IMG/VR virus record: IMGVR_UViG_3300045988_130119
Coordinates: 21,023-85,022 of that record
Length of the DNA: 64,000 bases
Strand: one strand, 5' to 3'
Origin: a virus
Part shown: in pieces, positions 22,736-29,035 of the stretch
Position numbering within the stretch: position 1 is the stretch's first letter
How the letters are laid out: the number at the start of each line of letters is the position of its first letter
Program-made: the position numbers and the translations under genes
The notes under the pieces: model-generated
Databases searched by the model: none
What the model was told of the DNA's origin: nothing
What the model saw: only the letters and a program-made list of their open reading frames with translations

Positions 22736-22990
22736 TTACTCTACAATCATCCAATCTTCTGCAAGCATATCTGCCTGACTTGCAAGCCATCCCATCTGTA
22801 CTCCTGATGTTCCGACAAATGCAATAGCCATGTTTCCGATAGCATCATGTTCGCAGTTTACAATTTCTCCATCTGCTGTCTTGTAAGAAATACCAGTAGC
22901 AAGCTGAATGTACTGCTTCTTACCATTCCAACCTTTACGAGCTACCTTCTTACCTTCTTTTAATACTTCAATAGCTTTACCAAAATTCAT
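22736..22990 (-). CDS. DUF2829-family protein (Tad2-like candidate anti-Thoeris sponge)
   Basis: [24 protein letters not shown]...[18 protein letters not shown] matches DUF2829 N- and C-terminal signatures. Confidence 0.5.
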   Translation of the reverse strand: [84 protein letters not shown]

Positions 22991-23003
22991 ATTTTATCTC
23001 CCT

Positions 23004-23333
23004 TTATTTGTTTTTTGAATTGGCTGTTGTTTTAATCTTCTGAACAGATTTCATAAGCTGAAGATTGTCGTTAAGAATTAATGCCATTGCCTGATCTTCT
23101 GAGAATCCTATTTCCACATATGCATCATACATATTTCTTTTATTCTCTGCGACTACTTTGTAATAGTCATCATATTTTACAAAGTCCTTCATGGCTTTAA
23201 CTAATTCATCGAATGCCATATATACAGTTGGTTTATATTTTTTAATATACCCTTTAATAATATCGTCAAGTGAAGTGTCTTCTGATTCTCCTGAAAGCAT
23301 TTCTTCAAGCATCATTTTTGTCATTGCGTCCAT
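23004..23333 (-). CDS. hypothetical protein
   Basis: ORF track. Confidence 0.35.
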   Translation of the reverse strand: MDAMTKMMLEEMLSGESEDTSLDDIIKGYIKKYKPTVYMAFDELVKAMKDFVKYDDYYKVVAENKRNMYDAYVEIGFSEDQAMALILNDNLQLMKSVQKIKTTANSKNK

Positions 23334-23448
23334 ATTGTTTATTCTCCTTATTTTTTATCTTTGTTATTCTTCTTTTACATTGCAGTTTCTAATATTCAGT
23401 TTTGTAAATACACTGTATAACCTGTTGGCACTTTCTCACCCAAAGCTT

Positions 23449-23739
23449 CTATTTATATGGCAATGTTTCTAACCACTGATTGATGCTTTCTATATCCATT
23501 TCTTCTGTTGTAGTTGCGTTTGGGTAATAAAATGTAATACTATCTCTCCCTAATCCCTCGTCAAGTAACTGCTTTAACACAGACAGTGTATTCTCTACGC
23601 CAAGGTGATAGGCTCGTTTCTGATCTTCATTATTAAATGATTTGTCTATACTTTCATTAGCTGAATCAATAACTGCTTTAACTTCATTTGGAATATTACA
23701 TCCCCAAAATTGTACATCGTCTTCAAATTCTGCAAACAT
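23449..23739 (-). CDS. hypothetical protein
   Basis: ORF track; palindromic motif about 80 nt upstream. Confidence 0.35.
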   Translation of the reverse strand: MFAEFEDDVQFWGCNIPNEVKAVIDSANESIDKSFNNEDQKRAYHLGVENTLSVLKQLLDEGLGRDSITFYYPNATTTEEMDIESINQWLETLPYK

Positions 23740-23841
23740 AAATTTTCTCCTACCTAATTATTCTCTATTTGATTTTGATTTAATTGGAAGTTCTGAACCG
23801 ATTTGGTTCTAATTAAGATGTTTAATGAAACTTTGTTTTCA

Positions 23842-24096
23842 TTAATACAAATTATTACTTAATTCCCACAAGATCTCTTTTGTTCTGTCAATTTCTTCTT
23901 CTAAACCAGCAATTTTATCTAACTCAACATACGCATCATCTACCGAATCTTTTATCTGATTTAGAACATTGTATACAACTTCTGTATATACATATGGTTT
24001 CCAGTAGTCATATCTTGTATCATTTGAGATGTCTCTGACTGTTTCTGTATTTCTTTTAATCTTTTCTCTATAGTTTGTGTTTATCATCATACCCAT
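23842..24096 (-). CDS. hypothetical protein
   Basis: ORF track. Confidence 0.35.
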   Translation of the reverse strand: MGMMINTNYREKIKRNTETVRDISNDTRYDYWKPYVYTEVVYNVLNQIKDSVDDAYVELDKIAGLEEEIDRTKEILWELSNNLY

Positions 24097-24102
24097 CTCC
24101 TT

Positions 24103-24363
24103 TTATTTAATATAAATTTCATGACAATCTACACAATAACTTAATGTTAAAGGGTCTATTTCTTCATAACCACTTGTTTTTCCATGCGAATAGAACACTG
24201 TTGTTGGGTCAAATATTACATGAATTTCTTTATCACACATATCCAAGCCTTTTACGTAGTATCCTTGAACCCATTCACCAGTAAATGTTCTTGCCTTACA
24301 TAAATGCGTATCCATTTTTGTCCTATCTCCTATCATCCAAGTCCGAATGAACTTTATTTCCAT
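24103..24363 (-). CDS. zinc-finger protein
   Basis: C...C...CVDCH. Confidence 0.35.
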   Translation of the reverse strand: MEIKFIRTWMIGDRTKMDTHLCKARTFTGEWVQGYYVKGLDMCDKEIHVIFDPTTVFYSHGKTSGYEEIDPLTLSYCVDCHEIYIK

Positions 24364-24638
24364 TAACTAATTTTGTATGCAAGTCTCGTATCCGTAAAAT
24401 ACTTAGTGACTATTCTGCAACGCAAATGATGCTCATCATACTCCAATTCTTCAATCTTAACATTTGATCGAATCGTTGCACCAGGATTCTTTGATGGAAA
24501 TGTTATTCTTGTGCCATCATAATTCTTATATGCTTCGCAATAACTTTCCCAATCATCTGCAAGAACCACTCTTGATTGATGATCTGTAATATCTTTATTC
24601 TCATCAATAGCAAGATTTGTTTCGGTAATTTCTATCAT
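24363..24638 (-). CDS. hypothetical protein, paralog of 20845..21156
   Basis: see 20845..21156. Confidence 0.4.
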   Translation of the reverse strand: MIEITETNLAIDENKDITDHQSRVVLADDWESYCEAYKNYDGTRITFPSKNPGATIRSNVKIEELEYDEHHLRCRIVTKYFTDTRLAYKIS

Positions 24639-26851: not shown

Positions 26852-26936
26852 CACGGACTCTCGGAGTTGAACCGAGTTTAAACCTTGTTATGGCTTACGA
26901 TTTAATCGTAGCTCTTACCAGTTGAGCTAAGTCCGT
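26852..26936 (-). tRNA. tRNA-like gene, 85 nt, extra 13-nt hairpin (ACGAT-TAA-ATCGT) inserted between D-arm and anticodon arm; putative anticodon AAC
   Basis: Perfect acceptor ACGGACT/AGTCCGT, D-arm GCTC-AACTGGTAA-GAGC, anticodon-like arm AAGCC-ATAACAA-GGTTT, T-arm CTCGG-TTCAACT-CCGAG. Confidence 0.45.
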
Positions 26937-27088
26937 AAATATCTATACAAACTACTTTCACTCGTATGAGTATATTAGTTATGGTAATATATTCTCTCAC
27001 CGACAGCTACCTCTGTTTTTCATCTGTATAGAAAAGCTACTAATGATATTAAGCATCCATAACATCTTAACTGACCACTTTCACTGAA

Positions 27089-27159
27089 CTAGGGATAGGA
27101 GAATCGGACTCCTATTCTGAGAATCAAAATCTCATGTGTTACCATTACACTAATCCCCA
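27089..27159 (-). tRNA. tRNA-Gln (anticodon TTG)
   Basis: Canonical cloverleaf: acceptor TGGGGAT/ATCCCTA, D-arm GTGT-AATGGTA-ACAC, anticodon arm TGAGA-TTTTGAT-TCTCA, T-arm AGGAG-TCCGATT-CTCCT; 71 nt, no encoded CCA. Confidence 0.75.
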
Positions 27160-27437
27160 TTGGATTTCCACAATGACCTTTCATAACATTGTGGCAATTT
27201 GAGCGATTTCCATTTCTGTTTCATAAGAATTTTTCAGCATTTCATTCTTTACTTACTTTTTTCACTCAAAAACATATATCTTTTCAGTTTATGAGCTATC
27301 TTATAACGGTACTATGTCTAGGTCTACTCCAGAATCTTGTACTTCGATTCCTTTTATTTTACGTTCATTTAAGGCTTTTGTTCCAATTCTAATTATTGCT
27401 CACCATACAGGCTGAACGACAGGTTTTTACTTATAAG

Positions 27438-27508
27438 CTAGGCTGTCCAGATTCGAACTGGATCTGCAAGAGTCAAATTCTTGTTTGCTACCATTACAAC
27501 ACAGCCCA
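27438..27508 (-). tRNA. tRNA with TTG anticodon (Gln-like, second copy)
   Basis: Acceptor TGGGCTG/CAGCCTA, D-arm TTGT-AATGGTA-GCAA, anticodon arm CAAGA-ATTTGAC-TCTTG, T-arm TCCAG-TTCGAAT-CTGGA; 71 nt. Confidence 0.7.
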
Positions 27509-27892
27509 TTATTGCAACTTTTATTAGGCAAGTTGCCAACCTTATATAATTAATTCACCATTTGCCAGCTTCGCAGACAACTTACAGCCAAGTACAATCA
27601 TACTGAAAACTGTTAATCGAAGATTTTGTAAAACTTTATATCTTTACTATTTACTATTTAAACTTTACACAAAACATAAACTTTGAACTTTGAGCTTTAC
27701 TACTTGAGATTTAAGCTTTACTCTTTACAGTCATAATTTGCATTATAATAAGTAGAAAGACTTACTTTTTATGTTTTATTTATACTCAAGTTTCTTTATT
27801 GTTTTGATTCAGACTATACTTGCAAAAGTCTGAATGATTGTAGTTTTAAGTTTTCAGCAAACAGTGAAATAATTTTCTATTTATATATTCTC
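27509..27892. repeat. repeat-rich non-coding region (iteron-like direct repeats and inverted repeats)
   Basis: TTTACTATTTACTATTTA, repeated CTTTAC/CTTTGA units, IRs GCAACTT...AAGTTGC and TCAGACT...AGTCTGA. Confidence 0.4.
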
Positions 27893-28537
27893 CTAATACT
27901 CTACAGAAATTTCTGTAATTGCATTGCTAACACTCAACGCAGCATCTACTTCTGTTTTGAAATTTGAGATATATTCTTCTAACCCATCAATCTTCTTCTT
28001 AATATCAAGTGGATCAACCAGGTCATAAGAATTAGCTGTAATGAAATCTTTCTTGGCTTTATCGAAATCAGCAGTATTTTGTTTTCCCTCTTTTGAACCA
28101 TACATATCTATCACAAACTTATCTGCTCTTTCACTCAAGCTTTCGCCATTTTCTGTTGAAATAATTCTATTAGCGTCTGCGTACTGACATCTCATTTCTT
28201 GAAGAAGCATTTCCTCAAATTCAATACCATGATTCTTCATCTCAATAGCTTCTGCTACAGTATATTCTCTGTCTGCAATTGCAACGATTGTCTTGGCATT
28301 GGAAAGAACAACTGCTCTCTTGATTGCATTTCTTCTTTTAATAAGGTCTGAAGCCTTGTCATAGCTTCCAATCATTAGCTTTTTAGCATCTTCAACCGGA
28401 ATACCATTAATTTTTTCATTTGAATGTTTATTTGCCACACAGAACTGAGCATCGTCAATTGCTCTTTCAATTCTGGAATCAATAATCTTTAACTCTGCTA
28501 ATGCTTTGTGAACACTCATTTTTTCAACTGTACTCAT
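27893..28537 (-). CDS. hypothetical protein
   Basis: ORF track. Confidence 0.4.
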   Translation of the reverse strand: MSTVEKMSVHKALAELKIIDSRIERAIDDAQFCVANKHSNEKINGIPVEDAKKLMIGSYDKASDLIKRRNAIKRAVVLSNAKTIVAIADREYTVAEAIEMKNHGIEFEEMLLQEMRCQYADANRIISTENGESLSERADKFVIDMYGSKEGKQNTADFDKAKKDFITANSYDLVDPLDIKKKIDGLEEYISNFKTEVDAALSVSNAITEISVEY

Positions 28538-28612
28538 AATTTTCTCTCCTTTAATCTTTGAATTTTTAAACTTTATATTTATATATTCTCCACTACATAG
28601 TGGGTAAAATCA

Positions 28613-29035
28613 TTAATTTACTAACTCTGAAATCGTCTGTAATGTTGACACTACACTTGTTAGAAACTCATTTACCGATTTAATGTAAAATTTAACTCTT
28701 CCATCGTCAATATTGATTAATGAAATCTGAGTTTCATCCACTGTTTCTACGCATCCATTCTCATCTAAAATGGTGTATTTAGGGCTTGAAGCGTCTTTAT
28801 CTAACACAATTCCGATTGTACCGTCATTGTATTGAATAACTGTACCCATATCAATTTTAGGCTCAAATAGCTCCCAATCCTTTGCTATAATGTCTTTGCC
28901 TAGCACCAATTGTAAATTGCCGTTATTATCTACAAGACCATCATCTTCCATTCTGAAATAACAACTATCTTCCCAACATGTTCTTCTTATACGTTTCCCA
29001 TTTAGAAGATGTCTTGTAATTTCTGAAAAATCCAT
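28613..29035 (-). CDS. protein with DUF2829-like N-terminal domain plus C-terminal extension
   Basis: MDFSEITRHLLNGKRIRRTCWE...AKDWELF resembles DUF2829 signature. Confidence 0.35.
   Translation of the reverse strand: MDFSEITRHLLNGKRIRRTCWEDSCYFRMEDDGLVDNNGNLQLVLGKDIIAKDWELFEPKIDMGTVIQYNDGTIGIVLDKDASSPKYTILDENGCVETVDETQISLINIDDGRVKFYIKSVNEFLTSVVSTLQTISELVN

Follow-up and report, generated by a model that had tools for sequence, protein, structure and literature searches.

Do two small genes of a large gut phage both encode sponges for the signal of the Thoeris defence system? The question was raised by a stretch of viral DNA of 64,000 nucleotides (positions 21,023 to 85,022 of IMG/VR virus record IMGVR_UViG_3300045988_130119), referred to here in its entirety as the window, in which a sequence-only reading had picked out two proteins of the DUF2829 family, that of Tad2, as candidate sponges for glycocyclic ADP-ribose (gcADPR), the signal of type I Thoeris. 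Both open reading frames (ORFs), termed P1 and P2 here, were found where that reading had placed them, on the minus strand, each with a plausible, purine-rich ribosome binding site (GGGAG, 8 nt 5' of the ATG, for P1; AAAGGAA, 5' of the ATG, for P2).

22736-22990, minus strand: P1, a stand-alone 84-aa Tad2-family (DUF2829) protein of the CcaTad2-like subfamily
28613-29035, minus strand: P2, 140 aa

The best explanation that we can offer, and one we consider probable as a whole, is that P1 is a Tad2 sponge, likely for histidine-ADP-ribose (His-ADPR) and thus against type II Thoeris, and that P2 is a pocket-poor Tad2 remnant joined to a small beta-barrel and a helix and is not a canonical sponge. 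It draws on family membership, fold, residue conservation and gene distribution, which are described in turn.

P1 is a full-length member of the Tad2 family

Against the Pfam family PF11195 (‘Tad2-like’), P1 scored 84.6 bits (cutoff 25; E = 7e-24) with residues 1-83 aligned to positions 1-73 of the 73-position profile, which bears out the claim that the protein follows the DUF2829 pattern over its whole length. Matches were also obtained to PHROGs 1048 and 872, while NCBIfam returned no match for P1 or P2. When solved Tad2 chains (8v3e, 9eib, 8wjd, 8kbi and 8sme) were searched by sequence, P1 matched ModTad2 (8v3e, 9eib; 2e-14), SptTad2 (3e-13), HgmTad2/AcrIIA7 (8e-13) and SPO1 Gp34.65 (2e-12), in agreement with the family profile. 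The AlphaFold 2 (AF2) monomer model of P1, with a per-residue confidence score (pLDDT) of 78.6, has the three elements by which the Tad2 fold was recognized, namely helix α1, an antiparallel sheet and helix α3. In a Foldseek comparison of this model with the Protein Data Bank (PDB), the top 24 matches were all Tad2 chains (template modeling (TM) scores 0.58-0.65, probability 1.00), and the next entries were noise (E ~0.8). The structural comparison to Tad2 that had been proposed as a check thus came out in favor of P1. Its best structural match was ModTad2 with bound His-ADPR (9eib; TM 0.65, 41% identity). P1 is a genuine full-length Tad2-family protein.

P1 has the Pfam family, the fold and the core W-N-G and W-x-x-S-x-x-D motifs in common with the gcADPR sponges SPO1 Tad2 (Gp34.65) and HgmTad2/AcrIIA7, and it is similar to SPO1 Tad2 in length and in its similarly short β2-β5 insertion. 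However, identity to these proteins is only 32-37%, a threonine of theirs (T78 in SPO1, T92 in HgmTad2) is an alanine in P1, and residues on the adenine side of the pocket are changed.

The pocket of P1 points to His-ADPR as its likeliest ligand

Members of the Tad2 family differ in their targets, which include CBASS, Pycsar and Thoeris types I, II and IV (PMC12393519), so that membership alone does not name the ligand. Residues that contact the ligand in SPO1 Tad2 (W25, N26, W73, D79 and T78, together with S76, H71, D67, I63 and T65; 10.1101/2023.05.01.538930) and in HgmTad2 (W21, N22, G23, W87, L88, S90, T92 and D93; PMC10680739) were transferred to P1 through HMMER alignments, which gave W21, N22, G23, W68, L69, S71, A73 and D74 as its pocket positions. 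The ADP-ribose-binding core, made up of W-N-G in the β1-β2 loop and W-L-x-S-x-x-D before helix α3, is intact: W21, N22, G23, W68, L69, S71 and D74 of P1 correspond to W25, N26, W73, S76 and D79 of SPO1 Tad2 and to W21, N22, G23, W87, L88, S90 and D93 of HgmTad2. The sole exception is the adenine-contacting threonine (SPO1 T78, HgmTad2 T92), which is Ala73 in P1. The adjoining adenine-side strand differs as well, with I63, T65, D67 and H71 of SPO1 Tad2 aligned, in approximate register, to F58, G60, S62 and M66 of P1. The core is invariant among 80 prophage homologs of P1, in which position 73 is Ala (73/80) or Ser (7/80), and near-invariant in 150 representative clusters, where position 73 is Ala in 123, Ser in 13 and Thr in none. 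The alanine is a signature of the subfamily rather than an isolated change.

A cyclic-dinucleotide sponge of the HgmTad2 type is recognized by a β2-β5 insertion of 35-41 aa that carries R31, S47, F70 and N85. The insertion of P1 spans ~22 aa, compared with the 35-41 aa needed for the dinucleotide pocket of HgmTad2 and SptTad2, and the two alignable contact positions, R31 and N85, are A31 and M66. Owing to its short insertion, P1 is predicted to lack a dinucleotide pocket of this type.

A more specific pointer came from the characterized relatives of P1. ModTad2 does not inhibit type I Thoeris and inhibits type II by sequestering His-ADPR, and activity against type II was likewise reported for two of its homologs, TmoTad2 and the Clostridium cadaveris prophage protein CcaTad2 (Sabonis et al., 10.1101/2024.01.03.573942). 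CcaTad2 was placed by its authors in the clade for which ModTad2 is the reference protein (10.1101/2024.01.03.573942), and ModTad2 holds His-ADPR in two symmetric interface pockets, A-B and C-D (PMC12393519). P1 is identical to CcaTad2 at 65 of 83 residues (78%) without gaps (E = 1e-49), and the two share 31 of the 33 residues in the pocket-lining segment 48-80. The C. cadaveris protein of the original Tad2 homolog table (Yirmiya et al. Table S12) has the exact motif of P1, including ‘GWLASQAD’ with alanine at the threonine position, and the DNA of the C. cadaveris gene is one of the two constructs in the plasmid table of Sabonis et al. Likeness to this clade extends to the structural comparison, in which 9eib was the best match. 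P1 and CcaTad2 differ in their setting, a ~198-kb Lachnospiraceae phage as opposed to a Clostridium prophage, and the annotated C. cadaveris ORF begins with a 9-residue leader that is absent from P1. Sequence changes in P1 fall mostly in helix α1 and the 32-47 loop.

Across the characterized proteins, the residue at position 73 (P1 numbering) follows the reported activity:

Thr: SPO1, Hgm, Spt and R. callidus Tad2, gcADPR binders or type I inhibitors
Ser: ModTad2, type II inhibitor
Ala: CcaTad2, type II inhibitor
Gly: TmoTad2, type II inhibitor

This pattern fits a smaller residue giving room to the histidine-bearing end of His-ADPR. Because P1 is 78% identical to CcaTad2 and has alanine where gcADPR binders have threonine, His-ADPR is the likeliest ligand, and P1 is most likely a sponge against type II Thoeris and not a gcADPR sponge. 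A smaller possibility is that, across thousands of Tad2 homologs, specificity for gcADPR or His-ADPR is set simply by whether the adenine position holds Thr or one of Ala, Ser and Gly. The family-level label (‘Tad2, therefore gcADPR’) can in any case give the wrong ligand, as the closest tested relative that we found points to His-ADPR and type II. P1 itself is a further member of an already catalogued subfamily, one member of which has been tested; by itself it adds little beyond the refinement that this member, CcaTad2, provides.

P2 combines a truncated Tad2-like domain with a beta-barrel and a helix

P2 had been described as a related N-terminal module fused to an extra domain of ~90 aa. 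Its score against PF11195 was 23.9 bits, just below the cutoff of 25 and confined to residues 1-30, so the proposed profile check, which P1 passes with ease, does not by itself bring P2 into the family; most members of the P2 family were pre-tagged PF11195 in the database. Comparison of the P2 and P1 families using hhalign gave a probability of 83% and E = 8.4e-6 (P2 1-57 aligned to P1 1-83), and a profile of the P2-family N-terminal domain, when searched against 1009 six-frame segments of the window, found P1 as the sole other significant match (E = 1.5e-5) and no third Tad2-like copy. On account of these two E values, homology of P2 1-57 to Tad2 is judged to be real and above chance. The relation claimed earlier is therefore upheld and its strength was overstated, and beyond the Tad2-like module there are ~83 aa, which form a barrel and a helix:

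28865..29035, minus strand: P2 residues 1-57, truncated Tad2-like domain with helix α1, the first Trp, a short hairpin and the C-terminal ‘D-I-I-A-K-D-W’ helix/strand, without the β2-β5 insertion and strands β3-β4
28712..28852, minus strand: P2 residues ~62-108, predicted five-stranded small beta-barrel with a Tudor/KOW/SH3-like fold, the most conserved part of the family
28619..28702, minus strand: P2 residues 112-139, predicted long C-terminal alpha-helix (AF2 pLDDT 76-91), with L132 and S136 invariant

The AF2 monomer model of P2 (pLDDT 74.6) has a Tad2-like fold in its N-terminal domain, and its C-terminal helix is possibly an oligomerization element. Foldseek returned no match to the whole model at E <= 1e-3, only generic small barrels, and in searches of PDB sequences with P2 and with the P2-family profile nothing was significant, the sole weak matches being Tad2 chains (E = 0.23-1.3). 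The barrel has no sequence-family match to the Tudor/KOW/PWWP/SH3-like small beta-barrels that it resembles in fold, and as folds of the Tudor/KOW/SH3-like kind are very common and serve many functions, no functional assignment was made for it.

Relative to P1, P2 has lost 8 aa (P1 32-39) and a further 17 aa (P1 49-65) that comprise strands β3-β4, one wall of the pocket. Only three of the eight pocket positions are kept, W21, L43 (P1 L69) and D48 (P1 D74), and of the side chains with reported contacts only W21 and D48 remain. At the remaining positions, N22 is replaced by Glu (Glu, His, Arg or Tyr across the family), G23 is deleted or variable, W68 is Q42, S71 is L45 and position 73 is K47. 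The search for a signal-binding pocket, whose lack had been named as refuting the earlier reading, thus divides the two proteins: the ADP-ribose core is kept in P1, whereas the pocket of P2 appears largely lost, and P2 is predicted not to be a canonical sponge.

The P2 family comprises ~140 proteins of 138-151 aa, with a fixed architecture in ~135 proteins, and a search with the C-terminal module alone retrieved the same family only, with no other architecture and no names. Its members are confined to a lineage of temperate ~200-kb phages that infect gut Lachnospiraceae, and distant relatives occur in phages of Lactiplantibacillus plantarum. These relatives, phrog_6670 and hypothetical proteins of L. 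plantarum phages (LP65 orf5, Iacchus, Semele and Satyr), have the N-terminal domain and barrel of P2 1-109 (phrog_6670, E = 4e-14; tblastn, 28-34% identity); they are very distant and uncharacterized, and unlike P2 they apparently do not have the C-terminal helix. We regard P2 as a modestly novel variant in which a pocket-less Tad2 remnant is fused to a conserved barrel. In every relative examined (L001, L002, L003, L084 and L086), P2 is followed by a gene for a protein of 211-214 aa, which in the window is:

27893..28537, minus strand: 214-aa gene directly 3' of P2, with a match to PHROG 1491, labelled ‘tail fiber protein’ (phrog_1491, E = 2.7e-55)

P1 and P2 differ in their distribution

Among the five related loci, P2 was present in all and P1 in three. 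Both genes occupy the syntenic positions of the window in L002 and L003, where P2 is 59% identical, while L084 and L086 have P2 and its neighbor (211-213 aa) and no P1-type gene within 10 kb by a six-frame hidden Markov model (HMM) search. P2 thus has the distribution of a core gene of the temperate lineage, whereas P1 is accessory and varies from member to member, as genes for counter-defence usually do. Proteins of the P1 type (69-88% identity) were found in at least 135 species-level genomes, almost all from gut Clostridia (Blautia, Coprococcus, Dorea, Roseburia and Oscillospiraceae), and also in Dorea phage DO134P1 (82%) and R. gnavus phage phiRg507T2_3 (77%). A family-wide search gave 4268 representative clusters at E <= 1e-3.

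In the 80 prophage loci (L004-L083, with the match at ~6001-6252 of each), the P1-type domain has an in-frame N-terminal extension of at least 55 aa in 64 and stands alone, like P1 of the window, in only 12. The typical extension is a ‘mini’ Tad2-like domain of ~75 aa (motif PSWGGYW...SDEW, without the second pocket Trp) followed by an ‘NCPxLGGEAT’ linker, and L023 has two such mini-domains. An extension of at least 55 aa was also present in 69 of the 139 scored domains from the 150 representative clusters. In these tandem proteins of gut Clostridia prophages the C-terminal domain belongs to the P1 subfamily (69-88% identity), and the N-terminal mini-domain and the N-terminal domain of P2 are both shortened Tad2 folds without the second Trp. 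The window differs from this arrangement in that its Tad2 protein stands alone and the shortened domain is encoded by another gene, together with a barrel and a helix.

The CcaTad2-like proteins are the dominant Tad2 type in gut Clostridia prophages and often occur as a tandem fusion with a mini-domain, a prevalence which suggests that gut phages are under major pressure from type II-like TIR (Toll/interleukin-1 receptor) signaling. As P2 and the fused mini-domains show, the Tad2 fold has repeatedly been shortened and reused without its pocket, so automatic ‘anti-Thoeris’ calls from weak DUF2829 matches will over-predict sponges.

Proposed mechanism and alternative explanations

By homology to solved Tad2 proteins, two V-shaped dimers of P1 would assemble into a homotetramer whose two pockets lie at the non-dimeric protomer interfaces. 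W21, N22 and G23 of one chain, together with W68, L69, S71 and D74 of its neighbor, would grip an ADP-ribose-derived TIR product by its diphosphate and riboses, and the bound signal would be kept from the Thoeris effector. The likeliest predicted target is type II Thoeris of Lachnospiraceae hosts. For P2, we propose a scaffolding or oligomerizing role for the Tad2 remnant, with the barrel as the surface that would bind a partner.

Several points weigh against this interpretation. The rule of Thr as opposed to Ala, Ser or Gly at position 73 is drawn from seven proteins only, single Tad2 proteins can inhibit several systems (PMC12393519), and in the available part of the report on CcaTad2 its effect on type I Thoeris is not given (10.1101/2024.01.03.573942). 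The labels in the plasmid table of Sabonis et al. also look swapped, with both constructs being active: the entry ‘TmoTad2’ holds the sequence of the C. cadaveris gene and the entry ‘CcaTad2’ that of the T. morbirosei gene, as comparison with Yirmiya et al. Table S12 indicates. Both AF2 models are monomers of moderate confidence (pLDDT 78.6 for P1 and 74.6 for P2), and because the pocket forms between chains, that of P2 may be re-built in an assembly.

The proposal from which this work started, that P1 and P2 are two copies of one countermeasure and both sequester gcADPR of type I Thoeris, now seems unlikely. A Tad2-like fold in both proteins, the inhibition of type I Thoeris by four of the five Tad2 homologs originally tested, the reported conservation of the gcADPR site in ~99% of Tad2 proteins and the seven of eight core pocket residues in P1 all speak for it, but ModTad2, the reference protein of the clade, is inactive against type I, the nearest tested relative of P1 that we found, CcaTad2, inhibits type II, and P1 does not have the adenine-contacting Thr. 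P2 fits it less well still, as it retains just W21, L43 and D48, varies across its family at the N22 and G23 positions and has no β3-β4. What stands of the proposal is the family of P1 and the defence system that it would counter; gcADPR as the ligand is probably wrong, given CcaTad2 and Ala73, and P2 as a canonical sponge was not upheld. Slightly less doubtful, if still improbable, is that P1 is a multi-signal sponge which takes up a second ligand at the intra-dimer (A-C) interface, for instance cyclic UMP or cyclic CMP (cUMP/cCMP) of Pycsar as ModTad2 does, or a general Thoeris inhibitor like Tad2_71. ModTad2, the top structural match of P1 (TM 0.65, 41% identity), has separate pockets for His-ADPR and cUMP, and Thoeris I, II and IV are all inhibited by Tad2_71 (PMC12393519); yet the 32-53 insertion of P1 is unlike that of ModTad2, and P1 has neither the long insertion nor the alignable dinucleotide residues of HgmTad2 (R31 to A31, N85 to M66). 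It is extremely unlikely that P1 acts as an anti-CRISPR of the AcrIIA7 type, in which a basic groove of the tetramer core binds trans-activating CRISPR RNA (tracrRNA) and blocks Cas9 loading. The DUF2829 protein AcrIIA7 binds tracrRNA through K58, K66, K71, K93 and R101 (PMC13133391), and K58, K66 and K71 align to K11, K19 and K24 of P1, but these three lysines are general to the family, K93 and R101 lie in the long insertion that is absent from P1, HgmTad2 and other Tad2 proteins were without anti-Cas9 activity (PMC10680739), and the nearest tested relative found for P1 is an anti-Thoeris protein.

For P2, a ‘Rosetta-stone’ inference from the fusions seen elsewhere would have its mini Tad2-like domain dock on the P1 tetramer and modify or localize it. 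Mini-domain-type extensions are frequent (64 of 80 prophage loci, 69 of 139 scored domains), and the two genes co-occur in the window and in L002 and L003. We nevertheless consider such a partnership very unlikely: P2 without a P1-type gene within 10 kb in L084 and L086 is not P1-dependent, which argues against an obligate partnership, the fused mini-domains are no closer to the N-terminal domain of P2 than to P1 (hhalign 90% against 95%), and the genes lie 5.6 kb apart with a tRNA cluster between them. More speculative than the view of P2 as a modest variant, and only tentatively put forward, is that the P2 family is a new functional class derived from the Tad2 fold, in which the pocket was discarded and the remnant became an oligomerization scaffold showing the Tudor/KOW-like barrel; the barrel would then bind a host immune protein or nucleic acid, or form a pocket for an undescribed signal.

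NUDIX hydrolase and methyltransferases

The two Tad2-like genes had been grouped with a NUDIX enzyme and two methyltransferases into an anti-defence repertoire. All three enzymes exist, as identified by PF00293 and PF00145, but at 8-34 kb from P1 and P2 they are not neighbors:

56757-57335, minus strand: NUDIX hydrolase (PF00293, 56.7 bits, above cutoff), ~28 kb from P2 and 34 kb from P1
37155-38765, minus strand: C-5 cytosine DNA methyltransferase, 536 aa (PF00145, 200.9 bits; cutoff 22)
38910-39836, minus strand: C-5 cytosine DNA methyltransferase, 308 aa (PF00145, 80 bits; cutoff 22)

The best NCBIfam resemblances of the NUDIX protein were to NudE, ADP-ribose diphosphatase and YffH, at 32-54 bits and far below the cutoffs of 80-248, which would make it an ADP-sugar pyrophosphatase type by best resemblance. 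We found nothing in the literature to link a stand-alone phage NUDIX to Thoeris, nor any sequence link for this one, and with the genes so far apart the term repertoire is a loose one. The adjacent methyltransferase pair is kept in relatives L001, L084 and L086. In SPbeta-type phages, C-5 methyltransferases guard phage DNA from restriction, and the pair in the window is plausibly anti-restriction and independent of the Tad2 question. A NAD+-reconstitution pathway (NARP) formed by the NUDIX and a small phosphoribosyltransferase (PRTase)-like gene near P2 was considered and rejected, as it finds no backing in the NARP3 paper and the PRTase was matched only weakly.

Genomic context of the window

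The window is contained in a 198,372-bp metagenomic contig (ENA ERZ27250586 k119_14196), and as megablast of 20-32 kb found no match among GenBank phages, the phage is novel at the DNA level. P1 and P2 lie within a long run of same-strand small genes, the G+C content of the window is ~31%, and a promoter/terminator scan gave no excess over shuffled sequence. The window covers a replication and accessory arm, with a RecD2-like helicase, a DnaB-like helicase, an AAA_24 protein and a DHH phosphoesterase, the YorF, YorH and VG64 families known from SPbeta-type phages, and FolD, ClpP, an SPFH/flotillin protein, a Pnkp-like kinase and a tyrosine integrase among its further products. A close relative of the ~200-kb phage (L084) lies inside a 2.37-Mb contig of a Mediterraneibacter faecis metagenome-assembled genome (MAG) (GCA_047240865.1, JBKTHL010000004.1, 385-406 kb). 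This embedding and the integrase of the window suggest an unusually large temperate Lachnospiraceae phage that has SPbeta-like replication genes (YorF, YorH, VG64). A search of GTDB representative genomes yielded no member of the P2 family, so the host was deduced from the relatives of P1, from a single M. faecis MAG contig and from the phages of Dorea and R. gnavus. Other features of the window are:

5539-6102 and 6856-7704, minus strand: ClpP-like protease and bifunctional FolD (methylene-tetrahydrofolate dehydrogenase/cyclohydrolase), auxiliary metabolic/proteolysis genes
30607-31221: small PRTase-like gene after the SPFH/flotillin gene, weak match
31175-32755, minus strand: SPFH/Band_7 and flotillin-domain protein, 526 aa, kept in relatives
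33819-34721, minus strand: P-loop kinase, 300 aa, resembling the kinase domain of bacterial Pnkp and tRNA(Sec) kinase (AAA_33/KTI12)
53770-55812, minus strand: 680-aa protein, full-length match to PHROG 1735 (E = 3e-257), a phage family of unknown function
62671-63687: tyrosine integrase
26353-26422, 26473-26556, 26852-26936, 27089-27159 and 27438-27508, minus strand: tRNA-like genes (Rfam)
27785-27868, minus strand: RAGATH-27 RNA (78.5 bits; gathering score 76.1), just 3' of the 214-aa gene

The 680-aa protein had no match in Pfam or NCBIfam, and six small neighboring ORFs had none in PHROGs. Between P1 and P2, at 26350-27870, lie the five tRNA-like genes, three of which were also called by ARAGORN, two as tRNA-Gln(TTG) and one with an odd two-base anticodon call. 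The 33819-34721 kinase is a few kb from this tRNA cluster and may have a role in RNA repair.

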